A stretch of 64,000 bases of DNA from an uncultured Fretibacterium sp. (GTDB lineage: Bacteria; Synergistota; Synergistia; Synergistales; Aminobacteriaceae), in contig CALBPU010000181.1 in assembly GCA_937899395.1 (NCBI GenBank), forward strand, positions 4,297 through 68,296. The letters are read 5' to 3'. The position numbers were made by a program, and so were the translations under genes. Numbering within the stretch: the stretch's first letter is position 1; each line of letters begins with the position of its first letter. The notes under the pieces were generated by a model. The model did no database searches. It worked only from the letters and a program-made list of their open reading frames with translations, and was not told the DNA's origin. This document shows positions 9,824 through 57,551 of the stretch, one piece after another.

Positions 9824-9859
9824 GGGCAAAAACTCCTTGCTCAATTAAATTTTAACGGG

Positions 9860-40642: not shown

Positions 40643-40675
40643 ACCCGTTAAAAATTTTTTGACGGGTTTTTTTTT
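40643..40675 (+). terminator. Intrinsic terminator after the antiporter gene
   Basis: ACCCGT (40643-40648) pairs with ACGGGT (40662-40667), followed by a T9 run. Confidence 0.7.
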
Positions 40676-40705
40676 GCTTAAATATTTATTTTTAATGTTA
40701 AAATC

Positions 40706-40713
40706 TCCGATAA
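40706..40713 (+). promoter_or_regulatory. Sigma-28 (FliA)-like -10 element TCCGATAA upstream of fliD
   Basis: It matches 7 of 8 positions of the GCCGATAA consensus, 42 nt before the ATG. No TAAA lies at the expected 15-nt spacing, so this is a partial match only. Confidence 0.3.
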
Positions 40714-40754
40714 AACTTACAGGATAGTCTAACAGAACAGGAGGTTAAATTTTC

Positions 40755-43700
40755 ATGGCTACAATGAGTGTATCGGGCGTAGTGTCCGGTATGGATTGGG
40801 AAGGAATGATTGACAGCGTTATAGAGTCAGCTTCAAATGCTGCTTACGTTCAAGTCAACAAGAAAACCAATCTTACGAATAAAAAAACGTTGTTTGAAGA
40901 AATGAAAGTTTCAATGCAGACGATTCAATCATCGCTCTCAACTTTGAAACTTCCTTCGACATATAAAGCCAAAGAAATTGATATTGAAAGAATAGACACG
41001 AACGGTTCATATAAAGGGGTATTAACTGCAACGGTTAATGCAGATGCTGAAGTGAACGTTCACGAACTTGAAGTCAAACAGTTAGCTACTGCGCAAACGA
41101 ACAGGTCTAAACAAATTACATCATCAACTCTCAAAAGCACGTTAGGAGGTTTAGACAGCTCGAAATTTTATATTAACGCAGGAGGCCAGCAGGTAGGAAT
41201 TGATGTTTATGCAACAGATTCTCTTGACTCTTTGAAATCGAGAATTAATACCACGTTAAAATCTCTCAACACTCCTTTAGCTGTATCTGCTTCAGTAGTT
41301 GACAGCAAGTTAATATTAAAAAGCGATTACACAGGACTTGGTAAAACAACCGTAGAAGGAACTCTCAAGGATAAATATACAACGACAGGCTGTACAAGTT
41401 TAGCAACTCTCATAACTAACACTGATGCAGGAACTACAACGAATATTGTCGTAAGCGATGATTATTTAGATGAACTGAAAGTTACGAGCGGCTCATCAAG
41501 CTACACAATTCATAAAGATTATGAGGTTGTTAATAACGAAATACGCTGGAAACAATACGAGGATACTAACGCCGTGAAACTTGGTGATAGTGTCAGTGCT
41601 GTTTACACTATGGGAGCAGACGATGTTATTGAGGTGAAAGCGACACGTGGTTCGGGCGATTCAGACAGTGTTGATTTTGGTTTTGATGTTAAGGATTACG
41701 GTACGTTAGGAAATCGAATGAAAATTAAATCCGTTCAAACTAAAACTGAAACAGAAGTTATAGATGATTCGCTTTTGCAGGAACCTACCGAAGCTGAATT
41801 AGCCTCTGAAACAGGAATTGATGAAGACGGGAACGAATATGTTGATACATTCAGCTACACAGAGGTTAAAGGTGAAACTGAAGACGATGATTCAACATAT
41901 ATTTTGAGCCGAACAAGAACGACAACAATAAACAGTTATTATACTTACGGAACGGATTTTACGTATTCGGACGGAAAAATTAACTGGATTACAAAGCCCG
42001 ATAAAACAACAAACGAACCTTCGTCTTATACTGTGAGTTATACGAAAGATAATTCGGTGGATTTCAACGTATCAGCCACAAAAACAAAAGAATTTGAGCA
42101 GCCTACAAGTTACACTGTAAGTTACCAGAAAGAGAATTACGTTGTTTCAACAAGGGAAATTCCTAATAATGGTACCAATAATCCAAGCGTATATTCAGGT
42201 TGGTTCGGAGGATATACATTCGACACTCTTGCAAATGAACTTAGTGAAATTGGTATAGGTACTGTTACCGCTGATGACGGATATGCATATCTTGATTTAT
42301 ACGGGACTAATGAAATCTCTGTAAAAGTTGGAGATACTGAATATGTTTATGGTCAAGATTATGTTATAAGATCCAGTTCAAACGGAAGTATCGTTGTAGA
42401 TTTTACAAAAGGAGACGATCCAACAAGCGGCGGTGTGGGGCAATACAGAACCAAAAAAGGTATAACCCCTGTTGCAACTGGTAACGATATTCCTTCGTCA
42501 TTTACGTTAGTTCGTAATCGCACATATCTTTATAAGACCGATACGGACGAAGATTCAGTTTACTCGAATATTTTGAGCATGGCCGACGGAGATTATTCCG
42601 GAATTACTATAAAAGATTCAGACAATAATACTTATTATTACACGTCAGATTCTACACAGTTAGACAATGAACATTTTATGATTGATGCACATGGGAGTAT
42701 TGTTTGGGCTGAAGAAGCAGCGGCCGATGATGAAATAAACATTGACGATCTTTTCACTCACTACAAAGAAATTACAGGCTCTGAACTTGGTACAGTAACT
42801 CTCACAGGAACAGACGGTATCATAAGGACGTACATTGACCCAGATGATGATTACAGAGACGCTTTCACAATAACTTCCGATAACGGTAAAACTTACGAAT
42901 ACGGACGTGATTTTGTCATAAGGGTAAATGATAATGGACAAGGTTATGTTGTTTCGTGGCTTGTATCAGGAGACAGGAATAAAGACGGAAAATATACTAC
43001 TCAAGATACTAACGTCGCCGTCTCAGCTTATACACAGCATAAAAACATCAGTACTCTTGGATTTCAAGTTGCGCCCGATGCTGAAACATATCCGAATTAC
43101 AAGTTCAATTTTGAGTATGAAAAACTTGATACAACAACTAAAACAGTATCATCATCAGCTACTGATAAAACACTTGAAACAATATTGGGTTATGAACTTT
43201 CAGAGGACGAGTACGAAGATCTTGTAATCAAAAACGGTTCAACAACTTATGAATACGGCTATGATTTCACGATTGAAACAGACGATGACGGCAACGCTTA
43301 TATAAGCTGGATTGATACAACTCCGAAGAAACCTTCTGAAGATGTTACGTTCAAAATAAGTTATTATACTGGTGATACCTACAAGTCAAAAAATATTGCT
43401 CCTACATCAAGTTCCACTACAACTAACCTTGTAGAAATTGTTATTGATGATGGCGATAAAATGTCTTGGAATGATATTCAGAACGTTACAAGTGCTGATG
43501 ACTTTGATCCTTCAGATATTTATGTCATTGACAATAACGGAAAAAGGTTTGAATATGGTACGCATTTCACGTTCGCCGTAACTGGTAATCAAAACTCAAA
43601 AAACGATGCTGGAGAACTTTTGCCAAGAATTACTTGGAATACATCAAATGTAAGTGCAAGCGACCTTACAACACCGTATAACGTTTATTACAAAACAGGG

Positions 43701-46157
43701 CTTAACATGTCTTCCGAAGACCTTGAGATAGAATATGATGATGATTATTCTGTATTCTCAGATCTATTCTGGGATCTTGATGATGATGAAATACCTTCGA
43801 GCTTCAGCAAAGATACAATCTCTATTACCGACAGCGAAGGCACAAAATATTATTACGGCAGAGATTTCAAAATCAACACCGACGGAACGATTAAATGGCT
43901 CGACTCAATCCCGACAGGCCCTGATGAAAAATCCGAATATATTATCACTTATGAAAGCTTCGACGCTCTCTCAACAACGTCAACTTTTGATTCAAGCAAT
44001 CCTAATTCAACTGTAAAAATTCAAGTTGACAATTACGGAAATTATTCAGACAGCACAGGCACTTATTTGAGTTATGAACAAATGCTCTCAAGCATGGGAC
44101 TTACAACAAGCTCTGCAAGCAATATAATCGACTCTTCATTCAAGAAAGCTAATCTGTTCACTATCACAGATGAAAATGATAATGAATATACTTACGGCAC
44201 TGATTTCGTAATTAGAATGAGCGATGATTATGTTGACGGTGTAACGGGAGAACATTTGGCTGTTATTGAATGGCTGGACGATGACGATTCAAACTCACCT
44301 GCAAACGGCTTGAATTTTACTCTCACTTACGGTTCTGACGGCGGAGAAGAATTTTCAATGGACGAAGCAATTACTCGTTCAAATTCTGATGTAATTGTTT
44401 CAGGTGTCAGCGGCACTCCTGTTTATTCTGAATTTGAGAGCGGAACTGTTACGATTAATCAGGCCGGAAGAACTTATTATCAGGGCTATGATTTTGATGT
44501 CGGAACTAATGACAACGGCGAAACTGTTATCAACTGGAAAACAGGCACCGATTACGAATGGTATTTACCAAATTCAGGCCAATATTCCCGCTACACTGTA
44601 AATCTTGTAACTTCTGACGGAACTGAAAAAACTTATTCAGGTGTTAGAAATTACGAGGACACTTTAGACATGAGAGATTACGGCTTCACTAACGTAGACG
44701 GCAGTTTGACTTCAATTAAGTACGGCGGTAAAACTTACGACTTAACAAGCACAACAGTTGATGAAGACGGTAAAACAGATACTGATTACGCTGCTGAACG
44801 TAACGGAATTACCGTTAATAACGGTACTAACGGAGGCGTAAAAGTTTTCAATTTCGATTGGACAGTACCGAATTTAACATCTCGTGAAGGCTTGCCTACT
44901 TACGGTTCTGACGTTGAAATTGAATATGATTATTGCGCTAATACTTTCTCTTTATCTGATGAAGGAGACGGGATTATTGATTTACTCGGACTTGAAGACG
45001 ATGTTACACAAGCTCTTAATGCTGTTATTGAACTTAACGGCGTTGAAATTGAAAAGGACTTGAACGACATCGGCTCATCTTACGAGAACGAAATTTCAAA
45101 TCTCAAGGGCGTAACTCTTCACTTAAAAGGAACTGGAAAAGTATCGCTTGATATTTCACATGACGCTGAAAAAGCTGTAACGTCGATTCAGACATTCGTT
45201 GAAAATTATAATTCTTTAATGACTTGGATTAATACACGAATGACTGAAAGCCAAGTTGATGATGATACGGCAGCTACGATTGATTCTGATGATTTCAGAA
45301 TGAGATGGGGACTTTTACACGGAAACTCACTGCTTAGAAACGCTAAAAGCAGCATGAGAGATATTACCGCAAGAAATTACACTTTCTCATTCACAGAACG
45401 AAAAAGTTCAACAGAAATTTACGGGCCTATGTCTTTTAACGGACTTAAGAATGATTCGACATTGAGGCTTCGAGTAGGTTCTGTATATGCTGACGTTATA
45501 ATTTCACCGACTGATACATTGCAAGACATCGTTGACAAAATTAACGACTCTTCAAATTCCGCAATGAGAAATATTTTTTACGGTTCGGACGGGAAATTAT
45601 TGGATCAACCGTTACTCAAAGCAAGTATCAGTTCGGATAAATTAGTTATCAAATCAACATCAGAAGATGAAATTACTATTTCAGGTTCTGCTGCATTAAA
45701 TGCCCTCAAAATGAATTACACTTACAAGGGCGTTTATCAGCTTGGAATTGCGACAACTTCCGACGATTACGGCAAGAGCGGAGAACTTGAATTTGACGAA
45801 GAAAAATTCATGGAAGCTCTTGAAGATAATCCCGATGAAGTACAGGAATTAATGTTGAAATATACCGCTGAAATGGATACATGGTTGAAATCAATGTTGA
45901 CGACTTCGGCATCAGGTGAAACTTCAGGAACTTTAACGAGGCAGATTGAAGATTTAGAATCTCAAATTAACGACATTAACGATTACCTTGAAGATTATCA
46001 GGACAGACTCGATCGAATGGAGGAAAATTTGAGGACTAAATACGCTGCCGCAGAACAAAATATTTCAAAGTTATCCCAGCAGGCAAGCGCAATCGCAGCA
46101 ATCTTACAACAGTTAAGCGGAAATAACTCTAATAATTCCTCAAGTTCATCAAGCTAG
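40755..46157 (+). CDS. fliD: Giant flagellar filament cap protein homologue (FliD/HAP2) with an internal insertion of about 1200 aa
   Basis: GGAGG RBS. The N-terminus MSVSGVVSGMDWEGMIDSVIESASNAAYVQVNKKTNLTNKKTLFEEMKVSMQTIQSSLSTL is FliD_N-like. The C-terminal 400 aa or so (VIELNGVEIEKDLNDIG..ISNLKGVTLHLKGTGKVSLDISHDAEKAVTSIQTFVENYNSLMTWIN ... GELEFDEEKFMEALEDNPDEVQELM ... LTRQIEDLESQINDINDYLEDYQDRLDRMEENLRTKYAAAEQNISKL) is FliD_C-like. Confidence 0.8.
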   Translation: MATMSVSGVVSGMDWEGMIDSVIESASNAAYVQVNKKTNLTNKKTLFEEMKVSMQTIQSSLSTLKLPSTYKAKEIDIERIDTNGSYKGVLTATVNADAEVNVHELEVKQLATAQTNRSKQITSSTLKSTLGGLDSSKFYINAGGQQVGIDVYATDSLDSLKSRINTTLKSLNTPLAVSASVVDSKLILKSDYTGLGKTTVEGTLKDKYTTTGCTSLATLITNTDAGTTTNIVVSDDYLDELKVTSGSSSYTIHKDYEVVNNEIRWKQYEDTNAVKLGDSVSAVYTMGADDVIEVKATRGSGDSDSVDFGFDVKDYGTLGNRMKIKSVQTKTETEVIDDSLLQEPTEAELASETGIDEDGNEYVDTFSYTEVKGETEDDDSTYILSRTRTTTINSYYTYGTDFTYSDGKINWITKPDKTTNEPSSYTVSYTKDNSVDFNVSATKTKEFEQPTSYTVSYQKENYVVSTREIPNNGTNNPSVYSGWFGGYTFDTLANELSEIGIGTVTADDGYAYLDLYGTNEISVKVGDTEYVYGQDYVIRSSSNGSIVVDFTKGDDPTSGGVGQYRTKKGITPVATGNDIPSSFTLVRNRTYLYKTDTDEDSVYSNILSMADGDYSGITIKDSDNNTYYYTSDSTQLDNEHFMIDAHGSIVWAEEAAADDEINIDDLFTHYKEITGSELGTVTLTGTDGIIRTYIDPDDDYRDAFTITSDNGKTYEYGRDFVIRVNDNGQGYVVSWLVSGDRNKDGKYTTQDTNVAVSAYTQHKNISTLGFQVAPDAETYPNYKFNFEYEKLDTTTKTVSSSATDKTLETILGYELSEDEYEDLVIKNGSTTYEYGYDFTIETDDDGNAYISWIDTTPKKPSEDVTFKISYYTGDTYKSKNIAPTSSSTTTNLVEIVIDDGDKMSWNDIQNVTSADDFDPSDIYVIDNNGKRFEYGTHFTFAVTGNQNSKNDAGELLPRITWNTSNVSASDLTTPYNVYYKTGLNMSSEDLEIEYDDDYSVFSDLFWDLDDDEIPSSFSKDTISITDSEGTKYYYGRDFKINTDGTIKWLDSIPTGPDEKSEYIITYESFDALSTTSTFDSSNPNSTVKIQVDNYGNYSDSTGTYLSYEQMLSSMGLTTSSASNIIDSSFKKANLFTITDENDNEYTYGTDFVIRMSDDYVDGVTGEHLAVIEWLDDDDSNSPANGLNFTLTYGSDGGEEFSMDEAITRSNSDVIVSGVSGTPVYSEFESGTVTINQAGRTYYQGYDFDVGTNDNGETVINWKTGTDYEWYLPNSGQYSRYTVNLVTSDGTEKTYSGVRNYEDTLDMRDYGFTNVDGSLTSIKYGGKTYDLTSTTVDEDGKTDTDYAAERNGITVNNGTNGGVKVFNFDWTVPNLTSREGLPTYGSDVEIEYDYCANTFSLSDEGDGIIDLLGLEDDVTQALNAVIELNGVEIEKDLNDIGSSYENEISNLKGVTLHLKGTGKVSLDISHDAEKAVTSIQTFVENYNSLMTWINTRMTESQVDDDTAATIDSDDFRMRWGLLHGNSLLRNAKSSMRDITARNYTFSFTERKSSTEIYGPMSFNGLKNDSTLRLRVGSVYADVIISPTDTLQDIVDKINDSSNSAMRNIFYGSDGKLLDQPLLKASISSDKLVIKSTSEDEITISGSAALNALKMNYTYKGVYQLGIATTSDDYGKSGELEFDEEKFMEALEDNPDEVQELMLKYTAEMDTWLKSMLTTSASGETSGTLTRQIEDLESQINDINDYLEDYQDRLDRMEENLRTKYAAAEQNISKLSQQASAIAAILQQLSGNNSNNSSSSSS
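41494..44540 (+). repeat. At least nine divergent protein-level repeats (100-180 aa spacing) with core motif Y-x-Y-G-x-D-F/Y-x-I ... I-x-W inside fliD
   Basis: Motif copies start near 41494 (YTIHKDYEVVNNEIRW), 41934 (YYTYGTDFTYSDGKINW), 42334 (EYVYGQDYVIRSSSNGSIVVDF), 42886 (TYEYGRDFVIRVNDNGQGYVVSW), 43238 (TYEYGYDFTIETDDDGNAYISW), 43538 (RFEYGTHFTFAV..RITW), 43838 (KYYYGRDFKINTDGTIKW), 44178 (EYTYGTDFVIRMSDD..AVIEW) and 44464 (TYYQGYDFDVGTNDNGETVINW). Confidence 0.65.
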
Positions 46158-46205
46158 TGAACTTACAAAAATTTTTCGGGAATGTACAGAAATGAAAATA
46201 AAAAA

Positions 46206-46232
46206 GGGGTTAGGAGTTAAAAGCTCCGCCCC
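46206..46232. terminator. Bidirectional intrinsic terminator between fliD and the convergent exoprotein gene
   Basis: GGGGTTAGGAG pairs with CTCCGCCCC, flanked by AAAAAA upstream and TTAAAATTTTT downstream. Confidence 0.6.
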
Positions 46233-46241
46233 TTAAAATTT

Positions 46242-49200
46242 TTAGTGTTTTTTACGAGATATAAGGTAAAACGCAAGACAAAACATTGCGCTGAAGCCCA
46301 ATCCTGAATTACAGCCTGAACCGCTACTGCCAAGCGTACTCTTGTTTTCATCATCAGGGTCTGTTTCAAGCTCGTCATCAATTTCGACATTCAAGTTCTT
46401 AACCCATTCTGCAACACTATCGTTATAGATCGTGTACTCAAATTCAGTCATAGGCTTATAGAGCGGGTAAATATAGTTAGGCTGGTTTGTTTCCTCGCCG
46501 CCGAAAGTATAAGTGCCCGATGCCGTTGTACCATTGGGATCATTGTACGGTTTTCCGAGATATTTCCATGCAACGACTTTGGTTACTGAATGATCTGTTT
46601 CGCCCCATGCTTTGAACTGCCAAGAAAGTAAGCCGGAAATGTGAACGTGCTTATCAATCCATTCATCGCTCTTGCCAGCCTCTTTATAGAGAGCTGTGAG
46701 AACGTTGTAAGTATCTTGAGCTACAGCGGGGTTTGCACCGTCAGTTTCGCCGTTGAACATCCAAGTTGAGACTTCGTTTTCAATCATTGCATTGACTTCT
46801 GCTTCAGTCCACTGTTGGAAGCTGCTGTGTTCCACTGTACCGTCCATTGCTTCCATATCCTCTGTACTGCTAACCATCATTCCGAAGTTGCCGTTGCATT
46901 CAACATAAGCGTTAATTAAGTCAGGACGCTGGCGAACAACATCGGAGGCAATGATCGTTCCTTGAGAGTTACCTACTAATGTGATGTTATCTACATCGGC
47001 ATTCCAGTTTTGCACAGCGTAATCCATAACGCTAGCTATCTCAGCTGCAGCATTTTCTGTGTTGTTGGAGTGAACGTTGACGCTCATGATAATAGCATCA
47101 GGATATTGTCTGTGCCATTCAGTCATCATAACATCGTAAACTGTATTACAGCCGGGGTTGTTGGCATCTGTTTCTCCATCATAGGAACGTCCGTCAGAGC
47201 CTTTGCCGTCGACTACTTCCCAATAGCAAACACCGCCTCCGGTCTGATAATCTACAATAGGATAAGGATTAGCTCGATTGGCATCATAGTTATCTGGCCA
47301 TATAACGAAGACGGGAACGCATTTTTCGGTACCTTGAGCTTCGTTAATAAGGTCATAGCTTTCGGCATCTCTTCCGATGTTGACCATAACAAGCTCGACT
47401 TTATCAAGGTCATCTGTAAGAATGGTCTCTTTCCAAGGAGTATTACTGAGCATCTTGCCAACGCCGTTAGTTGAAGCTATTCCGTCTTTAACGCTTGCAC
47501 CGCCCACACAGAGAACGAGATCCAAGTTCTCTCTGCGCTGCAAACCTTTGTTGAGCTTATTCGGGTAAATTGTAACGCCAAGTGCATCGTTTTTTTCTTC
47601 ACTGCCGTAATGAAGCTTACCTTCCGTGTCAATATACCAAGCAGAGCTGGTGCAGAGTGTTCCGTAAGTTTCGCGTGAACGGTCTGTAACTTTATCTGTA
47701 GTCTGAGAATCAACGGTCAATGTAACCTTATTGCCTTCAACAGAAATATCAGTGATTTTCATAGCGCCAAATTCCGGATTATTGAAACCACGATCGTAGA
47801 CAGCATAGTCCGTAAGCTTCACGCCTGTGAGATCGGTTCCAGACTTGTAAACGATCTCAACTTTTCCAACCTTATAGCCATAGAAGCAGGCTTCAGCGAT
47901 GGCTTGAATACTTTCGATTTCTGAGGCTGAAGGAGCAGAGGATTTACCAAGTGCCCAGTTGATGAAGTTATCGCCGTAAACGATGTACTCATGCCCGTCT
48001 TTCTTTCCCTGATCGCCGCCAGTGGTACGAACGCCACGTGTTACTACTTCATAAGTATCGCCGATAGCCGTTTTCTCGTCGTAAGTGAGAACGCCGTCAA
48101 CAACATCACAATCTGAACCGTAGTAAATACCGCGACCGTTTTTCGCTTCGCCGAAGTACCAATAATTAATTCTAGTGGTTGAGTGATCGCTCTCGCCCCA
48201 ATAGTAGAAAGGTTCTGACGGGAAAGCAGTCAAGCGAAGGTTCTCGGAAATCCAAGCATCGTCCATGCCAGCTTTCTCGTAAGCTGCTGTTTGTTCCTCA
48301 ACGGCATTGATGTTATTGAAATCCTGCTCAGCGTCAAATATCCAAGCACGTAAACCTGTTTTAGCAATAGCTAAACGATCATCAGCAGTCCAGAGAGCAT
48401 AACCGCTAGTAGGGCCACCAAAAAGACCATTGTTGCAAAGGAAGGTGCCAATGGTGAAATTGTAAGTGTCTTTGTCGAGTGTTCTAGTACGCTCGCTGCT
48501 GCCCCATGTCATAGCGTCTTGGTCATTAGTGTAGGGCTGACCTGCAAGAGCTTGAATAATGGTGCTGGCTGCCATAGTGCTTCTAGAATTGCCGTGAATG
48601 ATTATCTTTGCAGGGTCTACGGAGTAGTTATCGATCATGTACTTCATAACTTTTACGTCATCAACAACGTAATCATAGTCCAAATCCTGACAACTCTTAC
48701 CATCTTCATAATAACTTGCGCCGATAGCTGAACGGTCATGAACGTTGACAACAATAGCTTCTTCCCCTAGCCAAGCGGTAGTTGCAGCATCGTACATAAC
48801 GCCAGTTCCGAAGTTGTTTGTGCCATCTTCCAGAATCCAGAATGAAGTGCCGTCTCCGGTAAACGTGAAAACTAAAGGATATTTCTTTGAAGCGTCAAAG
48901 TCTTTGGGTTGATAAAGGAAACCTCGAACATAGTTATCTTTCACAGCTTTTGTCAGTGATGCTCCTGTGCTTTCGATCTGAATACCAAGTTCTTCAAAGG
49001 ATTTCAATGTTCCTCTGCCGTCATCAGTATTGAAGCCTATGTCTTGAGTTTCAAGCCATTTGTTATTTGCAGTGTACTTGCCGTTATTATCAACTAATGA
49101 AAGGTAAGTGCCTTCGGTATCACCTGCATGACGTAAACGTAACTCTAAGCTCTCACGTTTCTGATAGCCACTGAGACGCATTGTACGTAAATTTGCAGGT

Positions 49201-49739
49201 AAAGCTTTATAACCATTTTCGTCATTATCTTCAGTTCCAAAGTAAATCGTTCCATCTTTAGCTCTGAACCATGGGCCTGTGCAGTAAATACCGAACGCAT
49301 TGCGTGAACGGCTTCCGGTTTTGTTCTCACCGTTGTAGATTAATGCGTTTGTCTCTGTGGCATAAGTCCCCTGATAAACGTACAGCGTTACCGTTTGTCC
49401 GTCGACCTTGAAGGCTTGCAGCTTGACCTGTCCATAATCGGGTGTCTGTGTACCGCGATCTTCCAGTGTGTAAATATTCTGGTAGTTCCCAGCGTTCAGC
49501 CCTGCGAGATCCACACCGTCATTGTAAACGATCTCAACCTGCGTAAGACCTTGCCCGTAAGGGGTCATGTCTGTTGTTGCCTGCAAGCTTTTGACATCGT
49601 TAACAGTAAGGGTTGTCGCATCTCTTACAGCAGCTAATGACATAGAAGCTAACGCAAGAATAACAACAACTGCTAATAAAAACAACGAATAACCTTTTGA
49701 AAAACGTTTCCTTTTCAAAGAAACATCTCTCCTTTCCAA
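46242..49739 (-). CDS. Secreted tandem-duplicated alpha/beta-hydrolase (esterase-like, each half preceded by a beta-rich N-domain) with Synerg-CTERM-like sorting signal
   Basis: Signal peptide ...LALASMSLAAV. The two halves are paralogous (VEIVYNDGVDLAGL.. / VEIVYKSGTDLTGV..). Nucleophile elbows are HGNSRST and VGNSQGT. WGESDHS and WGETDHS give conserved His motifs. The C-terminus GSSGSGCNSGLGFSAMFCLAFYLISRKKH reads as motif + TM helix + basic cluster. Confidence 0.75.
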   Translation of the reverse strand: MERRDVSLKRKRFSKGYSLFLLAVVVILALASMSLAAVRDATTLTVNDVKSLQATTDMTPYGQGLTQVEIVYNDGVDLAGLNAGNYQNIYTLEDRGTQTPDYGQVKLQAFKVDGQTVTLYVYQGTYATETNALIYNGENKTGSRSRNAFGIYCTGPWFRAKDGTIYFGTEDNDENGYKALPANLRTMRLSGYQKRESLELRLRHAGDTEGTYLSLVDNNGKYTANNKWLETQDIGFNTDDGRGTLKSFEELGIQIESTGASLTKAVKDNYVRGFLYQPKDFDASKKYPLVFTFTGDGTSFWILEDGTNNFGTGVMYDAATTAWLGEEAIVVNVHDRSAIGASYYEDGKSCQDLDYDYVVDDVKVMKYMIDNYSVDPAKIIIHGNSRSTMAASTIIQALAGQPYTNDQDAMTWGSSERTRTLDKDTYNFTIGTFLCNNGLFGGPTSGYALWTADDRLAIAKTGLRAWIFDAEQDFNNINAVEEQTAAYEKAGMDDAWISENLRLTAFPSEPFYYWGESDHSTTRINYWYFGEAKNGRGIYYGSDCDVVDGVLTYDEKTAIGDTYEVVTRGVRTTGGDQGKKDGHEYIVYGDNFINWALGKSSAPSASEIESIQAIAEACFYGYKVGKVEIVYKSGTDLTGVKLTDYAVYDRGFNNPEFGAMKITDISVEGNKVTLTVDSQTTDKVTDRSRETYGTLCTSSAWYIDTEGKLHYGSEEKNDALGVTIYPNKLNKGLQRRENLDLVLCVGGASVKDGIASTNGVGKMLSNTPWKETILTDDLDKVELVMVNIGRDAESYDLINEAQGTEKCVPVFVIWPDNYDANRANPYPIVDYQTGGGVCYWEVVDGKGSDGRSYDGETDANNPGCNTVYDVMMTEWHRQYPDAIIMSVNVHSNNTENAAAEIASVMDYAVQNWNADVDNITLVGNSQGTIIASDVVRQRPDLINAYVECNGNFGMMVSSTEDMEAMDGTVEHSSFQQWTEAEVNAMIENEVSTWMFNGETDGANPAVAQDTYNVLTALYKEAGKSDEWIDKHVHISGLLSWQFKAWGETDHSVTKVVAWKYLGKPYNDPNGTTASGTYTFGGEETNQPNYIYPLYKPMTEFEYTIYNDSVAEWVKNLNVEIDDELETDPDDENKSTLGSSGSGCNSGLGFSAMFCLAFYLISRKKH

Positions 49740-51978: not shown

Positions 51979-54900
51979 ATGAATAAGCGAAAAAAATTTA
52001 TGTCATTATTTTTATGGACTGTAATTTTTAGCGTGATGTTCGTTTCGTCAGGATTTTCGGAAGAGGCTTTGCAATATGCAACAGGTTATGTTAAACCGCC
52101 GATTGATTTTTCACACATCGGAAGGTCTACACCTGAACAGGAAAGATATTTCAAGGACAAAGCAAGCAATTTCCCCGTCAGTTATGACCTGAGAAAACTT
52201 AACAGAGTTAATAAGACTGTCGGAGATCAAAATCCTTACGGAACATGCTGGGCATTTGCTACACTCGGAGCAATGGAATCAAATTATATGACGCAAGGTT
52301 TAACATCTTTGGGAAGCAAGCCGAATTTATCCGAACTTCATTTAGCTTGGTTCGCTTACAAAGACCCGACACAGGGAAATTCATTTACTGTCAACAAAGA
52401 TAAAGCAATTTTGGATCAAAGCGGACAAGTATTAAAAGCTTCAGCTCTTTTGTCTCGAATGTCAAGCCCTGTAATTGAAAAATCAATGCCGTATTCAAAG
52501 GCAGGAACAAACAAAAAGAAATCCGACAGCGTAATGACAAAATATGTAGGAGATAAAGCACCTTCGGATTATTTCCCGTTAGCATTGAATTTGAAAGAAT
52601 GGCTTTTGCTAGGTTCAGTTAGTGATGATAACCGTGAAAAGCAAAAAGAAAATATCAAAAAAATGCTTTCAGTTTACGGTGCCGTACAGATAAGTTATTA
52701 TGCAGGTGAGGGTGCAACATCTCCTGAAGGAAGCACAACAGCGTATTTTGATAACTCTCACGGAACTGAAACAAATCATGGTGTTTTAATCGTAGGTTGG
52801 AACGATAATTTTTCCAAAACAAAATTCAACAAAACAAAATCAAAGAGACCTAAGAATAACGGAGCATGGATTGTAAAAAATTCATGGGGAAAAGATTGGG
52901 GCAACAGCGGTTATTTTTATATGTCGTATGAGCAGTTTATTGCAGATGCTTCTGTGTTCATTGTAGAAGAAGCTAAAACAGATGAAAAAGTTTATTATCA
53001 TGACGCTTTAGGTTTTGTTTCTTCTCACGGTTACGGAAAAAATACTCCTGCTTACGCCGCAAATGTTTTCAAAGCAACAGCAACTGAGGGAATAAGATCC
53101 GTAGGTGTTTACGCAACAGATGACAACACTAAATACGAAATATATATTTGCAACGATTTAGGAACTGCAAAACCTTCATCGCCCTTATCGGAAGATATAA
53201 AACGTGTAGCGTCAGGAACTTTTATGAATGCTGGCTATCATACTGTTGACCTTTTTCAGCATTTACTTGTAAAAAAGAATCGATATTTTTCTGTAATCGT
53301 AAAAATGACAACTCCGAATTCAGACAAGCCGATTGCAGTTGAACGTGTCGTAAAGGATTATTCTGACGGAGCTGTAATAAAATCAAAAGAGAGTTATTTT
53401 TCTTCTGATATGCTTACATGGACTGACGGCACAAAAATCAGAAACGATGAAAATAAAATCGCTAAGAGCAATGCCTGCATAAAAGTTTTCACGTTTTATG
53501 GTATTCCTATTGATGAAGCACATTTTCCTGATGAACAATTCAGAAATTGGGTAAGCAAAAATTGTGATTTTGATAAAGATGGTTATCTTAGCACTAAAGA
53601 AATTTTTCAAATTAAAAATGTCAGTGTCAGCAAGTGTAACATTGCAAATTTGAAGGGCATTGAATATTTTACAGCTATGAAAATGCTTTCCTGCAGTAAC
53701 AATAATATGACAAAATTGGATGTAAGCAAATGTAATGCTTTAGAAATACTCACTTGTAATAATAATAAATTGACAAGTTTGATAGTAAACAAAAATACTT
53801 TGCTTAAATATCTTGAGTGTACGCATAATCAGCTGATAAAAATAAATATTAGCAAATGTACCTCTTTGGAAACACTGTTTTGTGGCTATAATCAACTAAC
53901 AACTTTAACACTAAGCAATAATATTTCTCTCAAAAGACTTGACTGCGAATATAATCAACTAATAAAATTAAACGTCAGTAAGTGTAATGCTCTGGAGGAA
54001 CTTTATTGCTACAACAATCAACTCAATACCTTAACACTAGGTGATAACATTCTTCTTGAAAAAATTTTTTGCAATAATAACCAGATAACTAACTTAAATA
54101 TCAGCAAATGTACTGCACTAAAATCACTCCAGTGTAATGATAATCAAATGCAAGTCTTAACGATTGGAGTTAATATTGCTCTTGAAAGCCTTCATTGTCC
54201 TAATAATCAGCTCACAAAATTAAATGTAAGTAAATGTAAAGCTCTGGAATGGCTTTACTGCAATGACAATCAACTTAAAACTTTAACTCTTGGCAATAAC
54301 ATTCTGTTAAAATATTTTCAGTGCTACAATAACCAACTTACAAATTTAAACGTAAGCAAGTGCACTTCTCTAAAAATTCTAGGATGTTATAATAATCAAA
54401 TTAAGACATTAACGCTTGGTTTTAATATTGCTTTGGAAGAACTTTATTGCCACGACAATCAGTTGACAGCCTTAAATGTTAACAAGTGCAGTACTTTGAA
54501 AAAGCTTTATTGCTACGAGAACAACATAACAACATTAACGTTAGGTTCTAATACTGCTCTGAAATATATTCACTGTTATAGTAATAAGATAACAAATTTG
54601 AATGTCAGTAAATGTACTGCATTGAATACGTTGTATTGTCATGATAATAAATTAAAAACTATAACATTCGGACAAAATATTGCTTTGGAATATTTTTCTT
54701 GCGACGATAATCAACTTACAAAATTAGATGTCAGCAAATGTATTTCTTTAATTTCTCTTTCTTGCAGCAATAATCAACTTACAACATTAAAGTTAGGAAA
54801 CAATACAGCATATTCTATGTTCGTGTATTGTGTCAACAACAAACTTAAAAATATTGATGCATCAGGTTGTTTTAATGTTCACATTGTTGCTGATGAAGGA

Positions 54901-55338
54901 GTAAACATTACTTGGCCTTCATCAAAATCAAACTCCGCAAAATCATATTCATCGCAGAAATTTGACACTCAAACCCAAAATCACGGCGGCAATGAAAGCA
55001 GCGTGTTCAAAACCGCTTCACTGAAAATTTCGGACGATGATATTTTGTGGCAAGGTGAAAATCGTGATGAAGATTTGGTGAAAGTCCGAGCTAACATGCC
55101 CGTAACGTTTATTATCGGCGATTGGCTCAAATCTGACGGAACAAACGCAAATGTTTCTGTCGATAATATTCAAATTTTTGTCGATGATAAATTCGTTGAA
55201 GGTATTGAAATTTCTGATGAAAAAATCTTCACTCTTCCTGCTGAATTTGTGCATGATGATTTCAAAATCGGTGTTAAAGCAAAAATTCAGGGAAGCGAAT
55301 TTGAATCTGATGAGTTATATATCTCAGCTGAAAATTAA
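51979..55338 (+). CDS. Giant secreted protein: signal peptide, papain-family (C1) cysteine peptidase, beta-domain, LRR array of about 20 units, shared C-terminal domain
   Basis: Active-site context GDQNPYGTCWAFATLGAMES (Cys), NHGVLIVGWND (His), KNSWGKDWGNSGYFYMSY (Asn/Trp). The LRR cap is EAHFPDEQFRNWV, and the LRR array follows. The last 105 aa or so are homologous to the C-terminus of the 6110-9823 protein. Confidence 0.85.
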   Translation: MNKRKKFMSLFLWTVIFSVMFVSSGFSEEALQYATGYVKPPIDFSHIGRSTPEQERYFKDKASNFPVSYDLRKLNRVNKTVGDQNPYGTCWAFATLGAMESNYMTQGLTSLGSKPNLSELHLAWFAYKDPTQGNSFTVNKDKAILDQSGQVLKASALLSRMSSPVIEKSMPYSKAGTNKKKSDSVMTKYVGDKAPSDYFPLALNLKEWLLLGSVSDDNREKQKENIKKMLSVYGAVQISYYAGEGATSPEGSTTAYFDNSHGTETNHGVLIVGWNDNFSKTKFNKTKSKRPKNNGAWIVKNSWGKDWGNSGYFYMSYEQFIADASVFIVEEAKTDEKVYYHDALGFVSSHGYGKNTPAYAANVFKATATEGIRSVGVYATDDNTKYEIYICNDLGTAKPSSPLSEDIKRVASGTFMNAGYHTVDLFQHLLVKKNRYFSVIVKMTTPNSDKPIAVERVVKDYSDGAVIKSKESYFSSDMLTWTDGTKIRNDENKIAKSNACIKVFTFYGIPIDEAHFPDEQFRNWVSKNCDFDKDGYLSTKEIFQIKNVSVSKCNIANLKGIEYFTAMKMLSCSNNNMTKLDVSKCNALEILTCNNNKLTSLIVNKNTLLKYLECTHNQLIKINISKCTSLETLFCGYNQLTTLTLSNNISLKRLDCEYNQLIKLNVSKCNALEELYCYNNQLNTLTLGDNILLEKIFCNNNQITNLNISKCTALKSLQCNDNQMQVLTIGVNIALESLHCPNNQLTKLNVSKCKALEWLYCNDNQLKTLTLGNNILLKYFQCYNNQLTNLNVSKCTSLKILGCYNNQIKTLTLGFNIALEELYCHDNQLTALNVNKCSTLKKLYCYENNITTLTLGSNTALKYIHCYSNKITNLNVSKCTALNTLYCHDNKLKTITFGQNIALEYFSCDDNQLTKLDVSKCISLISLSCSNNQLTTLKLGNNTAYSMFVYCVNNKLKNIDASGCFNVHIVADEGVNITWPSSKSNSAKSYSSQKFDTQTQNHGGNESSVFKTASLKISDDDILWQGENRDEDLVKVRANMPVTFIIGDWLKSDGTNANVSVDNIQIFVDDKFVEGIEISDEKIFTLPAEFVHDDFKIGVKAKIQGSEFESDELYISAEN
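53641..54880 (+). repeat. Tandem 63-nt (21-aa) LRR coding repeats with a 126-nt super-period
   Basis: Units alternate between two types: L..L.C..NQLT.LNVSKC.. and L..L.C..NQL.TLTLG.NI.. For example, LEWLYCNDNQLKTLTLGNNIL then LKYFQCYNNQLTNLNVSKCTS. Confidence 0.75.
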
Positions 55339-55354
55339 TAACCCGCAATTAAAA

Positions 55355-55384
55355 AGAGCCTCTCGAAAGTGGGAGACTCTTTTA
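55355..55384. terminator. Imperfect hairpin terminator between convergent genes
   Basis: AGAGCCTCTC-GAAAGT-GGGAGACTCT followed by TTTATTTATT; the stem has two mismatches. Confidence 0.45.
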
Positions 55385-55395
55385 TTTATTATTTT

Positions 55396-56238
55396 TTACA
55401 GTTTATAGTTTATTAAAAGTGCTTCAATCATTGAATGTCTATTAATTTCTCTGGCTCCTAAATGATAAAAATGCTCGTGATTAATTTTTTTGCAGAAATT
55501 CCATATCGAATCAATATATTTGTTTGTTCTATAATTATTATAATCCCATGTAGAGAGCATAAATTTAGCCTCTATATTTCTCAAAATCCCGCAAAGTCTT
55601 TTCTCTGAATCTTCGTCCCAACTGTCATAATAATCAACATGACGGCCAATATATGGAGGATCGCAATAAATGAAGGAATCTTTATCCGAAATTTCTATTG
55701 TATTTTCAAATGATTGACATATAAATCTCCAATCATAAATTTTCAAGCATTCTTCGATATACCATACCTGATTAACTATTTTTGTAATATATGCCCTCGA
55801 AAATCTTAAAGGCTTATGTCCATAAGGTACATTGAATTTATAATCTTTATTAAACCGTATCATGCCGTTAAAGCATGACCTGTTCAAAAACAAAAAGTCT
55901 AAAGGATTATGAGTTTTGTTAAATCTTTCACGTACAGCATAATAATATTTTTCATCAAATTCAGCTAAATTTTTCCCCTGTTCTTGAAGAAATACTCTTA
56001 CAATTTCTGAATTAATTTTGCCTGATTTAACGGAGTTGTAAAAATTAATTATATGAGGATTTATATCAGCGAAAATTGCACGCTCCGGTCTGATATTAAA
56101 ACCAACTACACCGGAACCCATAAAAGGTTCAATCCATAAAGTTTTTTTATTTATTGAAATATTTTGTTTTATAACAGGAACTAATTTAGTTTTAATGCCC
56201 TGAATTTTTATCGGAGGGACAAAAATTTTTTCGCTCAT
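55396..56238 (-). CDS. Dam-family N6-adenine DNA methyltransferase, M.EcoRV-like
   Basis: FVPPIKIQGIKTKLVP, EPFMGSGVV (AdoMet site), NRSCFNGMIRFN, catalytic CDPPYIGRHVDYY. Similar along its length to M.EcoRV as I remember it. Confidence 0.9.
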   Translation of the reverse strand: MSEKIFVPPIKIQGIKTKLVPVIKQNISINKKTLWIEPFMGSGVVGFNIRPERAIFADINPHIINFYNSVKSGKINSEIVRVFLQEQGKNLAEFDEKYYYAVRERFNKTHNPLDFLFLNRSCFNGMIRFNKDYKFNVPYGHKPLRFSRAYITKIVNQVWYIEECLKIYDWRFICQSFENTIEISDKDSFIYCDPPYIGRHVDYYDSWDEDSEKRLCGILRNIEAKFMLSTWDYNNYRTNKYIDSIWNFCKKINHEHFYHLGAREINRHSMIEALLINYKL

Positions 56239-56239
56239 T

Positions 56240-57072
56240 TTATTTTAACCGTTTAGATTTTCTGGGATTATTTAATTTTTCCGGTAATCCTCTATAACGT
56301 AAATATTCCGAAAAAGAAGAAATATTTTTATAAATACCGTTTTTGTTTTGAATTTTTATCTTTCCGAAATTTGCCCAATAATCATCAAATAATTCTTCTC
56401 CAGCTTTTGCAAAAACACCGTTACTGTTTAATATATCGTCAATAAATTGAATACTACCTATGTTAGCTGTATTACCACTGCCGCTTTTATCACTTGCAAT
56501 TTTCCATTTTTCTGCTGCAAAGAAAATAAAATCTTTTATGACAGCAGGAATATTTTCAATATCATCTACGGAAAAAATTTTTGCTTCATAAAGTTCTGAA
56601 ATATTTCTCGAATAAATTATCCCTAAACAAAAATGTCCGCTATATTGATTATATGGATATTGTATATTTTTAGTGCTGTTTCGTTCTGTAAAATATTCGC
56701 CGTGTGAACCCAATGTAAAACCATTGCAAAAATCTTTATATTTTTCATCTCGGTATGTAGTTTTTAAGTCAACAGCAAATTTGATTCCAGAATTTTTCTT
56801 TGATACAAAAGTAAAATCAGGATACCAATTTTGTTTTTCAGCAGGCTCAATTTCGTAATCTATATGTTCTGCAAAACATAAAAATTCAGGTACAAATGAA
56901 GCTCAAGTATTTTCGAGATAACTTTTGAATCCGTCGTCAACGGATAAATATTTCTAAAAATATCTATAAAGCCTCTAATTGTCCATTCATTTTTGCTTAA
57001 AATTTTTGACGGAAGATTATCAGCAAATAATCTTAAATTTTCAAAAAACTTTTCCTTTTCTATTTTATACAT
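56240..57072 (-). pseudogene. EcoRV-family type IIP restriction endonuclease, split by a 1-nt frameshift near 56897-56903
   Basis: ORF 56860-57072 (..IYPLTTDSKVISKILELH) matches the R.EcoRV N-terminus (..IYPLGSDTKVLSTIFELF). Reading frame +1 from about 56900 gives SFVPEFLCFAEHIDYEIEPAEKQNWYPDFTFVSKKNSGIKFAVDLKTTY..., which runs into ORF 56240-56713 (NSTKNIQYPYNQY.., WKIASDKSGSGNTANIGSI). PD and DLK sit 16 residues apart, as for EcoRV D74/D90/K92. Confidence 0.8.
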
Positions 57073-57551
57073 GCTGAATAACGCTCTCTCAATTTTTCAA
57101 ATACTGTTTCAGGCACAACATCTTTAACCGTTCCGCCGAAATGAAAAATTTCTCTCACACTTGAGCTTGATACATACGAATATTTCGGATCAGTTACGAT
57201 GAAAAATGTTTCAATATCAGTAGCTAACTGACGGTTCATTAATGCCATTTGAAATTCATACTCAAAATCTGACATGGCACGCAATCCACGAATTATTACC
57301 CCTGCGTTGCATTGTTTGACATAATCAACCAATAATCCGTTGAAACTATCGACTTTAATATTTTTAATATGCGCTAAAGATTCTCGAGCCATTTCACAAC
57401 GTTCTTCAACCGTAAATGCCCCTTGCTTGCGTTCGTTTATTAAGATACTGACGATTACTTCATCAAAAATTTTCGCAGCCCTTTCAGCGATGTATATATG
57501 GCCATTAGTTATAGGATCAAATGAACCCGGATATACTGCTTTGATTTTCAT
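57060..57551 (-). CDS. coaD: Phosphopantetheine adenylyltransferase
   Basis: AVYPGSFDPITNGHIYI (T/HxGH), ISSSxVRE-type motif (VSSSSVREI); 163 aa. Confidence 0.95.
   Translation of the reverse strand: MKIKAVYPGSFDPITNGHIYIAERAAKIFDEVIVSILINERKQGAFTVEERCEMARESLAHIKNIKVDSFNGLLVDYVKQCNAGVIIRGLRAMSDFEYEFQMALMNRQLATDIETFFIVTDPKYSYVSSSSVREIFHFGGTVKDVVPETVFEKLRERYSACIK

Follow-up and report, generated by a model that had tools for sequence, protein, structure and literature searches.

Is an 1800-residue FliD homologue, encoded in a 64-kb window (the whole stretch of DNA analysed here), a flagellar filament cap, and what fills the length by which it exceeds ordinary caps? The gene starts with ATG and specifies a protein of 199 kDa with a pI of 4.2, confirming the first-pass annotation of a FliD homologue several-fold larger than the characterised caps. 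Filament caps characterised so far have masses of ~50 to 74 kDa, and the cap is usually seen as a minimal assembly chaperone. A pentameric cap built from a 199-kDa FliD would reach ~1 MDa and, to our knowledge, such a protein (up to 2136 aa in relatives) would rank among the largest flagellar type III substrates known. The features of the locus, in order along the window, are as follows.

40643-40675, + strand: intrinsic terminator of the upstream Na+/H+ exchanger gene, an 11-bp stem (40643-40667) followed by a T-run.
40686-40713, + strand: putative σ28-type promoter, with -10 CCGATAA (40707-40713) and -35 TTAT (40686-40689), from an alignment of upstream regions (A2).
40721-40746, + strand: leader with two GGA boxes, AGGAT (40721-40725) and ACAGGAGGTT (40737-40746), also from A2.
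40755-46157, + strand: fliD open reading frame, 1800 aa, from the ORF call.
40785-41096, + strand: residues 11-114, N-terminal D0/D1 helices and the start of D2 (FliD_N, PF02465).
41097-41432, + strand: residues 115-226, first half of D2 and the D3 head domain, placed by profile-to-PDB alignment and the model of a homologue.
41433-44657, + strand: residues 227-1301, ten β-modules, from a motif scan, an iterated HMM and AlphaFold2.
44658-44951, + strand: residues 1302-1399, a further conserved β domain that joins the array back to D2, from the model and the family alignment.
44952-45374, + strand: residues 1400-1540, returning D2 strands and first D1 helix (PF07195 at residues 1420-1540).
45375-45728, + strand: residues 1541-1658, small insertion domain in the leg, weakly resembling Flagellin_IN.
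45729-46112, + strand: residues 1659-1786, C-terminal D1/D0 coiled-coil helices, from PRK07737 and the homologue model.
46116-46154, + strand: Ser/Asn-rich tail SGNNSNNSSSSSS, read from the sequence.
46204-46234, strand unassigned: hairpin flanked by an A-run and a U-run, from folding.

Both ends of the protein belong to FliD, as had been proposed from the sequence by eye and is now borne out by two Pfam models above their cut-offs. FliD_N matches residues 11-114 over the complete model (positions 1-97 of 97; E 6.8e-12, 46.3 bits against a cut-off of 24.8), and FliD_C (PF07195) matches in two stretches, the first beginning at residue 1420 (E 2.6e-31, 109.3 bits against a gathering cut-off of 25.4). 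NCBIfam FliD models cover residues 1417-1545 and 1659-1786, the latter, comprising the terminal helices, corresponding to positions 361-498 of 501 in PRK07737. The equivalog cut-off of the NCBIfam FliD models was not reached (best model NF005188, 106.5 bits against 469), a shortfall expected from the 1190-residue insert and from divergence; it counts against equivalence to those specific models, not against homology to FliD.

The remaining terminal segments are consistent with this assignment. In the model of a homologue (P0073, see below), the equivalent of residues 115-226 consists of β strands and one helix, the equivalent of residues 1659-1786 is predicted as a long C-terminal helix, and a β/α domain occupies the place of residues 1541-1658; the Flagellin_IN match there (residues 1580-1635) is below the Pfam cut-off (E 0.051). 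The low-complexity C-terminus remarked on at first reading is a real Ser/Asn tail and typical of the family as a whole: in at least 40 of 78 family sequences the last six or more residues are all S, N, G or T, and the shorter relatives carry SGTSS-like tails.

A single-protein phmmer search of the PDB sequences gave no match; the family profile matches the solved FliD structures 6sih, 9gsx, 5fhy, 5xlj and 5h5w. Profile positions 88-223 align with chain positions 21-154 of the P. aeruginosa FliD structure 5fhy and with the E. coli structure 5h5w (D2-D3), and profile positions 1030-1125 align with the C. jejuni structures 6sih and 9gsx and with chain positions 165-252 of 5fhy, leaving ~810 family-profile positions between chain positions 154 and 165 of the P. 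aeruginosa protein. By this alignment ~1190 residues are inserted where an ordinary FliD has a ~10-residue link leading from D3 to the returning D2 strand. For the full-length fold we used an AlphaFold2 model of P0073, a 1066-aa family member 44% identical to the window protein, as a stand-in (pLDDT 76). Foldseek aligned this model at probability 1.00 with caps from Salmonella, Campylobacter and E. coli (E 8e-14 to 1e-9); over the structures 9gnz, 6sih, 9gsx and 5h5v, E ranged from 8e-14 to 1e-7 and the target-normalised TM score from 0.5 to 0.69. The FliD core of D0, D1, D2 and D3 is thus predicted to be kept in the N- and C-terminal parts, the fold being taken from P0073 and extended to the family by the profile match to the PDB.

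The first-pass annotation had described ~1200 central residues that could be assigned to no family. An insert of ~1190 residues is indeed present, and it resolves into an array of ten β-modules followed by one further β domain. The modules, each of 75-90 aa and built on the motif xTITDxxGxxYxYGxDFxIxxxGxIxW...P...YTVxY, lie at residues 227-301, 370-445, 508-577, 608-693 and 693-767 (modules 1-5) and 814-888, 905-988, 1008-1082, 1117-1199 and 1214-1301 (modules 6-10). Eight are clear and two (copies 1 and 4) are degenerate; a stricter count gives nine. An AlphaFold2 model of residues 196-1395 is mostly β (mean pLDDT 81.2), and the copies are joined by linkers, some of them with low predicted confidence (model residues 276-281, 438-443, 687-706, 777-817 and 903-905). 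The closing domain, residues 1302-1399, is modelled with pLDDT >90 and is aligned in 96% of family members at a mean identity of 44%.

Direct searches with the insert returned little. Residues ~216-1399 of the window protein have no Pfam or PHROG match, the DUF4815 model (PF16075) gives nothing at E ≤ 1, and no enzyme or binding domain was found in the array. Against the PDB, Foldseek returned nothing for the insert model at E ≤ 1e-3, its best matches being titin Ig tandems (E 0.025) and, at low probability, phage neck/connector proteins; against BFVD it returned only long phage structural proteins at probability ≤ 0.28. None of these structural matches is confident, and we assign the array no fold from them.

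The family-level module profile (A5, which includes the window's modules) was more informative. It retrieved 140 proteins among 1.84 billion representatives, and 85 of the 125 new matches have no FliD termini. When 55 of the non-FliD matches were scanned, 29 proved to carry DUF4815 (best score E 1.4e-166), nine Baseplate_J and four a tail-sheath domain, and the PHROG matches of the retrieved proteins include baseplate wedge subunit, baseplate protein and tail sheath. The phage-type proteins are reached by the repeat profile at whole-library E values down to 1e-17 and have in common the motif TYxxGTDYxL...IxW...P..G..FTVxY; unlike them, the window modules are too divergent for a direct match to Pfam DUF4815 or PHROG. 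One giant FliD, P0049, exceeds the DUF4815 cut-off (31.1 bits against 30, model positions 237-359), and several Synergistota FliDs of ~680 aa have precomputed DUF4815 matches. On profile and homologue evidence, the module is a relative of a segment of DUF4815, a domain to which, so far as we know, no function has been given, and most of its occurrences beyond FliD are in baseplate and tail-sheath proteins of phages. The same module occurs in an FlgL-like junction protein, P0275. The host of the module here is a flagellar axial protein, and its phage-type relatives are tail proteins, a distribution that points to phage tails and flagella having exchanged domains that decorate their surfaces.

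The window protein is not a one-off and belongs to an annotated, unstudied family. Its design is shared by more than 70 proteins from Synergistaceae metagenomes, 1000-2136 aa long, that NCBI already names FliD; no description of a giant or large FliD, or of FliD in Synergistetes, turned up in the literature searched. Across Synergistota the series shares the N- and C-terminal cores, the insertion site, the module and the isolated gene position with the window protein, which takes its place in the series with 8 clear and 2 degenerate modules. Copy number runs from one module (~680 aa) to 14 (2136 aa), and from 4 to 14 among related gut Synergistaceae alone. The FliDs of Aminivibrio pyruvatiphilus (681 aa) and Thermanaerovibrio acidaminovorans (831 aa) have one and three modules, respectively. 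Protein length follows 519 + 127 × modules (r = 0.976, n = 165 family members). This graded series suggests that the distal face of the cap can serve as an evolvable display site, comparable to the hypervariable region of flagellin. An apparent recent loss of a module (P0002 versus P0157, differing by 137 aa within one 90%-identity cluster) was rejected, the difference being an N-terminal truncation only.

The two parts of the protein have evolved at different rates. The core is 68-69% identical across the family, with many invariant residues (residues 1-215, mean 69%), and the insert 39%. The first and last modules and the domain at residues 1302-1399 keep their positions, and conservation is poor in the middle modules (40-61% aligned, 17-37% identity). 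Judged from these alignments, divergence is much faster in the modules than in the core. The best database member is only 63% identical to the window FliD; for PurA, another product of the window, the closest database relatives reach 90-97%.

The first-pass annotation had considered the genomic context atypical. The gene is indeed isolated and monocistronic: a comparison of ~60 ORFs spanning the whole window with Pfam found no flagellar gene, and specifically no fliS, fliT, flaG or flagellin near fliD within the 64 kb. Such isolation, however, is ordinary for the phylum, because in T. acidaminovorans, as in six further relatives, fliD lies apart from the remaining flagellar genes just as it does here, and no flagellar gene lies within 10 kb of fliD in any relative examined. 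T. acidaminovorans is motile by lateral flagella (PMC3035242), so that the neighbourhood does not discriminate in Synergistota, and an isolated fliD should be regarded as normal when genomes of this phylum are annotated. A tblastn search of the window and 25 loci (452 kb) with P0275 and a B. subtilis Hag sequence as probes found no flagellin; P0275 gave matches solely to the part of fliD that bears the modules, in three loci (L003, L004 and L025). No csrA or fliW gene was seen in the window. No flagellar gene other than fliD is visible in the window or within 10 kb of the fliD of its relatives, and a flagellar apparatus in this organism is therefore presumed.

The gene stands alone, with a terminator on either side. 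The upstream terminator noted at first reading was recovered by a terminator scan and is predicted to isolate fliD transcriptionally. The downstream hairpin is unusually stable (-19.4 kcal/mol, z = -4.85; none of 200 shuffled sequences matched it) and is probably a bidirectional terminator common to fliD and a convergent gene of 1165 aa; folding thus supports the bidirectional terminator proposed earlier, though a simple terminator scan missed the hairpin at ~46204-46234.

Upstream of fliD lies TCCGATAA (40706-40713), which the first-pass annotation had read as a partial σ28-like -10 element. With 32 occurrences of CCGATAW in the window where 14 would be expected, a single site proves nothing, and the case rests on conservation. 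In alignment A2, which comprises nine orthologous upstream regions from the low-GC giant-FliD clade, CCGATA(A) is invariant (9/9) and TAAT stands 17 nt upstream in 8/9, giving TAAT-N17-CCGATAA. The window is the exception, its -35 TTAT having one mismatch to TAAT; the -10 is therefore complete and conserved, and only the -35 of the window is degenerate. The σ28 consensus is TAAA-N15-GCCGATAA, and it is by likeness to this consensus that the element is assigned, putatively, to σ28. CCGAYAA boxes recur, with a longer leader, in a second clade (L015-L020); no obvious CCGATAA box stands at the same place in T. acidaminovorans or in a 683-aa relative.

Between promoter and start codon, both GGA boxes are invariant in the nine orthologues while the flanking bases vary, and the ACAGGAGGTT box includes the ribosome-binding site. 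CsrA-regulated leaders are known from the flagellin mRNAs hag, flaB and flaA of Bacillus, Borrelia and Campylobacter, and the fliD leader, with its two GGA sites of which one overlaps the ribosome-binding site, may resemble them. RNAalifold found no conserved structure or hairpin in the nine leaders, so a GGA site presented on a hairpin is not supported, and we regard the boxes as candidate CsrA-type sites and as a lead only.

Taken together, the conserved core, the promoter and the graded family make it probable that the giant fliD is a true cap gene of the late flagellar class, and that the enlarged head of its product forms a rapidly evolving array at the filament tip. The host, an uncultured gut or rumen Synergistaceae, would transcribe fliD as a late flagellar gene and export the protein unfolded via the flagellar type III system, and the protein would then form the usual oligomeric cap that guides the insertion of flagellin. 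Caps solved in situ are pentamers; on this stoichiometry the arrays would project from the distal face and amount to ~50 modules and ~650 kDa of extra mass per cap. The suggestion that the cap has been elaborated into a distal adhesin or display platform is plausible. As to what the array does, we can only speculate; the most likely role would be that of a variable tip surface serving adhesion (to glycans, particles or cells) or antigenic or phage-related variation. A more ambitious proposal, which we consider less likely than not, would make the cap a megadalton, fast-diversifying tip organelle in which ~50 phage-baseplate-type modules per tip act as a grappling or recognition device, or as a decoy for flagellum-binding phages. 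Gain and loss of modules would tune reach and specificity, σ28 and a CsrA-like checkpoint on the fliD leader would couple expression to filament assembly, and flagellar tips would tether the cell to glycans, plant particles, protists or other microbes.

The array could instead be a structural adaptation rather than an adhesin, a wider lid that caps or chaperones a thick filament of giant or decorated flagellins. Giant flagellins do occur in Synergistetes, for example in Aminomonas paucivorans (PMC6248924), the FlgL-like P0275 indicates that several axial proteins can bear the module, and the positions of the first and last modules and of the 1302-1399 domain are conserved. A copy number varying from 4 to 14 among gut relatives, together with poorly conserved middle modules, is a bad match to a precise structural fit, and we consider this explanation unlikely.

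Co-option of the FliD scaffold for a non-flagellar filament had been the other hypothesis of the first reading. More broadly, an organism lacking flagella might use the scaffold to cap or form another surface structure, or as a secreted or surface protein acting alone. Such co-option draws on the lack of flagellar genes in the 64 kb and within 10 kb on either side in relatives, and on the patchiness of motility in Synergistetes, where the annotation of the non-motile Aminobacterium colombiense lists no flagellar genes (PMC3035294). It is disfavoured, and we think it improbable, because fliD is just as isolated in the motile T. acidaminovorans, the σ28-type promoter is conserved, and conservation is highest (68-69% identity) in the D0/D1 leg segments, by which the protein inserts into the filament. 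Export of a FliD, which has no signal peptide, moreover depends on the flagellar type III system. That the gene is an assembly chimera or is degenerating might be suspected from its unusual length alone and from a source that is probably a metagenome assembly. This we regard as highly improbable: the 5.4-kb reading frame is intact, independent assemblies contain collinear homologues (99-100% query coverage, 42-44% identity), no DNA repeat longer than 36 nt inside the gene offers a basis for mis-joins, GC content is even (0.37-0.38), and promoter, ribosome-binding site and terminators are in place.

For the preferred reading, a flagellar cap with an expanded head, the nearest precedents are H. 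pylori FliD (685 aa, PDB 6IWY) and C. jejuni FliD (PDB 6SIH, 9GSX), caps with head domains beyond D2-D3, to whose structures both the family profile and the model of P0073 align. Their additional domains number only two, described as folds of the D2/D3 kind, and their mass is ~74 kDa; the window protein, in contrast, has ~1190 inserted residues and 199 kDa, and the number of modules varies among its relatives. In H. pylori FliD the additional head domains, D4 and D5, are surface-exposed and make up its more antigenic part (PMC8306008). FliD acts as an adhesin in P. aeruginosa, and corresponding reports for C. difficile and H. pylori are contested (PMC8306008). The P. aeruginosa protein binds host glycans as a mucin adhesin independently of filament formation (PMC8306008; see also PMC4009794). 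It is of ordinary size and has no added modules. The cultured, motile T. acidaminovorans, with its three-module form, offers a tractable model for density at the filament tip, adhesion and the role of the array.

A second parallel is provided by the giant flagellins of >1000 aa in Bermanella and Oleibacter (PMC6248924), likewise axial proteins in which conserved terminal helices enclose an expanded lineage-specific surface insert, and which, like giant FliD, must leave via the flagellar type III system. In the flagellins the insert sits on the filament subunit, is repeated thousands of times and makes the filament thicker; in giant FliD it sits on the cap, in a few copies at the tip, and consists of modules in tandem.

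The window fliD is an intact ORF that lies between an upstream terminator and a probable downstream one and forms a monocistronic unit. The downstream element is a stable hairpin (-19.4 kcal/mol, z = -4.85) with A and U runs on its flanks.

40643-40667: clear intrinsic terminator upstream of fliD
40721-40746: fliD leader with two GGA boxes (AGGAT, and ACAGGAGGTT over the ribosome-binding site)
40755-46157, forward strand: fliD, intact, 1800 codons
~46204-46234: hairpin downstream of fliD
46242-49739, reverse strand: 1165-aa ORF convergent with fliD, with a weak S9 peptidase match only (residues 890-1017)

The encoded FliD homologue (199 kDa, pI 4.2) has a conserved leg and head core and a tandem array of modules, ~1190 residues long, on the distal side. 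With Pfam, FliD_N matched residues 11-114 over the full model length (E = 6.8e-12; 46.3 bits, cut-off 24.8) and FliD_C matched in two stretches, the first from residue 1420 (E = 2.6e-31, 109.3 bits against 25.4). Residues 1417-1545 and 1659-1786 match NCBIfam FliD models, the second stretch reaching the model end, with scores far under the equivalog cut-offs. Residues ~216-1399 have no match in Pfam or PHROGs, and the scans of the protein showed neither an enzyme nor a lectin domain. A Pfam scan of the whole 64-kb window (about 60 ORFs) found no flagellar gene besides fliD; the ORFs are housekeeping, surface or restriction genes. The first-pass annotation, which described canonical FliD termini, flanking terminators and no other flagellar gene, is thus correct in its description. 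The Ser/Asn tail that it remarked on is a compositional trait across the FliD family.

The ~1200 residues that had seemed assignable to no family resolve as a tandem array. The insert, in which Thr, Asp, Ser and Tyr are abundant and Cys is almost absent, carries a recurring motif (Y-x-Y-G-x-D-F-x-I ... G-x-I-x-W). A module HMM, built on eight copies and then iterated over homologues, detected ten modules, eight clear and two degenerate (nine by a stricter count), and pairwise identity between the copies is low, at about 16-36%.

Residues 227-301, 370-445, 508-577, 608-693, 693-767: modules 1-5
Residues 814-888, 905-988, 1008-1082, 1117-1199, 1214-1301: modules 6-10

An AlphaFold2 model of residues 196-1395 (72 homologues, mean pLDDT 81.2) shows a series of small domains, most of them beta, with linkers in between, of which several are predicted with low confidence; segment 1302-1399 is a further beta domain, conserved and well predicted. 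Foldseek of this multi-domain model gave no confident relative in the PDB (best, titin Ig tandems, E = 0.025), and every match in a viral library had a probability of 0.28 or less.

The FliD family profile matches solved FliD structures from Campylobacter jejuni (6sih, 9gsx), Pseudomonas aeruginosa (5fhy), Serratia (5xlj) and Escherichia coli (5h5w). Profile positions 88-223 align with 5fhy chain positions 21-154 and profile positions 1037-1125 with chain positions 165-252, and the whole insert therefore takes the place of some ten residues in an ordinary FliD. By this alignment the insert follows the D3 head domain and precedes the returning D2 strands, on the predicted distal face of the cap. 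The FliD core fold is retained as modeled: the full-length model of P0073, a 1066-aa family member (44% identical, pLDDT 76), matches the in-situ Salmonella and Campylobacter caps and E. coli FliD in Foldseek (E = 8e-14 to 1e-9, probability 1.00, target-normalised TM up to 0.69).

Giant FliD genes are already catalogued and auto-annotated as FliD, and do not constitute a new system; they are of interest to structural biologists of the flagellum and to students of phage-host exchange of surface domains. A large protein database yielded 77 relatives, 1000-2136 aa in length, and both FliD_N and FliD_C are present in nearly all of them. Where the source names them, they are from metagenome-assembled genomes; several span 99-100% of the window FliD at 42-44% identity. 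In scans of genomes and metagenomes, relatives turned up in bins from goat reticulum and red deer gut. These scans also brought out a second clade, with enlarged FliDs of 1058-1269 aa (~30% identical), on JGI metagenome contigs (loci L015-L020). Queried alone, the C-terminal 401 residues reach complete FliDs of 641-683 aa, many with precomputed DUF4815 matches and one from Aminivibrio pyruvatiphilus, and the module profile retrieved the 831-aa, three-module FliD of Thermanaerovibrio acidaminovorans. Across 165 family proteins with both termini, the module count ranges from 1 to 14 and length equals 519 + 127 x (module count), at r = 0.976. The window FliD, with eight clear and two degenerate modules, is a member of this family, which is graded in size within Synergistota and takes in a motile cultured species. 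The searchable literature yielded no account of giant, modular FliDs; the enlarged cap exemplified in a 2021 review is the 74-kDa Helicobacter pylori FliD with domains D4 and D5 (PMC8306008).

The genomic isolation of fliD, earlier considered atypical, is not peculiar to the window. No flagellar neighbors occur within 10 kb at six other giant-FliD loci, at the locus of a 683-aa relative, or in T. acidaminovorans, a species that moves with a tuft of lateral flagella and whose genome assigns 71 genes to the cell-motility category (PMC3035242). Another giant-FliD clade (L001, L003, L021, L022, L023) has a conserved non-flagellar neighborhood in the order dynamin-like GTPase, Orn/DAP decarboxylase, variable small ORF, fliD, Na+/H+ antiporter, PRAI, EamA, ParA/MipZ-like ATPase and a 350-450-aa unknown protein. 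At L024, the locus of the 683-aa relative, a gene pair for a PEMT-like methyltransferase and an LPG synthase lies directly upstream of fliD (7263-8934); the window has such a pair at 1365-2955 (reverse strand), 38 kb from fliD, which may be a synteny remnant or a coincidence.

Nine orthologous fliD upstream regions are unconserved apart from four shared elements. The sigma-28-like -10 noted earlier as partial is present, and its CCGATA(A/T) box is invariant in all nine, with TAAT 17 nt upstream in eight (TTAT in the window). The remaining elements, the AGGAT box and ACAGGAGGTT, which contains the ribosome-binding site, are likewise invariant. On its own, CCGATAW has 32 occurrences in the window, where chance predicts 14; the promoter evidence is therefore the conservation and not a single match. 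The conserved arrangement is in keeping with the sigma-28 consensus, TAAA-N15-GCCGATAA, and we infer from this a sigma-28-type promoter. Loci L015-L020 have their own CCGAYAA box, a longer leader and the ribosome-binding site AAGGAGGGG. The two GGA boxes of the window leader recur about 16 nt apart at L001, L003, L005, L006, L007, L010, L011 and L014; the rest of the ~35-nt leader is variable and unstructured, and no conserved hairpin was found in the fliD leaders. We take these boxes, by their resemblance to CsrA sites on flagellin mRNA leaders, to be candidate sites that, if real, would bring the cap gene under FliW/CsrA-type control.

Mean identity to the family is 68-69% over the N-terminal 215 and C-terminal 391 residues, with many invariant positions, and 39% over the insert. 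The first two modules, the last two and segment 1302-1399 keep their positions; modules in the middle are alignable in just 40-61% of family members. The closest database FliD is 63% identical overall; the window PurA shares 90-97% identity with many Synergistaceae metagenome proteins and 74% with that of a Fretibacterium sp. By these comparisons the cap evolves quickly, the array above all. Quick evolution is common in exposed surface proteins.

The module profile, A5, matched only 140 of 1.84 billion representative proteins at E ≤ 0.001, and 85 of 125 new matches lack FliD termini. Domain scans of 55 of these 85 found DUF4815 in 29 (best E = 1.4e-166), Baseplate_J in nine and tail sheath in four; PHROG matches include baseplate wedge subunit, baseplate protein, tail sheath and major tail protein with an Ig-like domain. 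The giant FliD P0049 itself exceeds the DUF4815 cut-off (model positions 237-359). Together these matches make the module a rare surface-decoration unit common to phage tail and Synergistota flagellar axial proteins. To our knowledge DUF4815 has no known function, and just three searchable papers mention it. One scanned protein, P0275 (514 aa, Logan assembly, outside the window), has Flagellin_N and by sequence looks like a FlgL-like hook-filament junction protein. It bears two to three module copies, so the module is not limited to FliD among flagellar axial proteins. S-layer-anchored Firmicutes proteins also bear the module: a Paenibacillus flagellatus SLH-domain protein (P0185/P0290, 2507-2578 aa) and P0186 (3698 aa) are very large non-flagellar surface proteins with 7-11 profile matches.

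The giant FliD would serve as the functional filament cap. It would leave the cell through the flagellar type III system and be oligomeric, as a pentamer in the matched in-situ structures, with its arrays projecting from the filament tip. Co-option of the FliD scaffold for a non-flagellar role and an assembly artefact are both disfavored on the evidence given here. Repeats within the gene do not exceed 36 nt at the DNA level, so the array is old and not prone to assembly collapse. What a projecting array would do is a matter for speculation; it might mediate adhesion, or offer a variable or decoy surface. Adhesion has precedent in P. aeruginosa FliD, with the Clostridioides difficile and H. 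pylori reports contested, and the extra head domains of H. pylori FliD are antigenic (PMC8306008). A rival reading is that the array is a structural fit to giant flagellins, which occur in Synergistetes (PMC6248924).

Further features of the window include two predicted surface proteins and an adenine methyltransferase with an adjoining ORF.

6110-9844, reverse strand: 1244-aa predicted surface protein with leucine-rich repeats and He_PIG/PKD Ig-like domains (BspA-like)
51979-55338, forward strand: 1119-aa predicted surface protein with a papain-family C1 peptidase, a lectin-like domain and leucine-rich repeats
55396-56238, reverse strand: D12-class adenine methyltransferase
56240-56713, reverse strand: 157-aa ORF

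The region of the ORF convergent with fliD has a GC content of 0.43-0.44, compared with ~0.37 elsewhere. The methyltransferase and the 157-aa ORF lie in a low-GC island (54000-58000, 0.31). The 157-aa ORF matches just C-terminal positions 100-244 of the 244-position EcoRV endonuclease family. This may represent part of an acquired restriction-modification cassette in which the restriction gene is truncated or mis-started.
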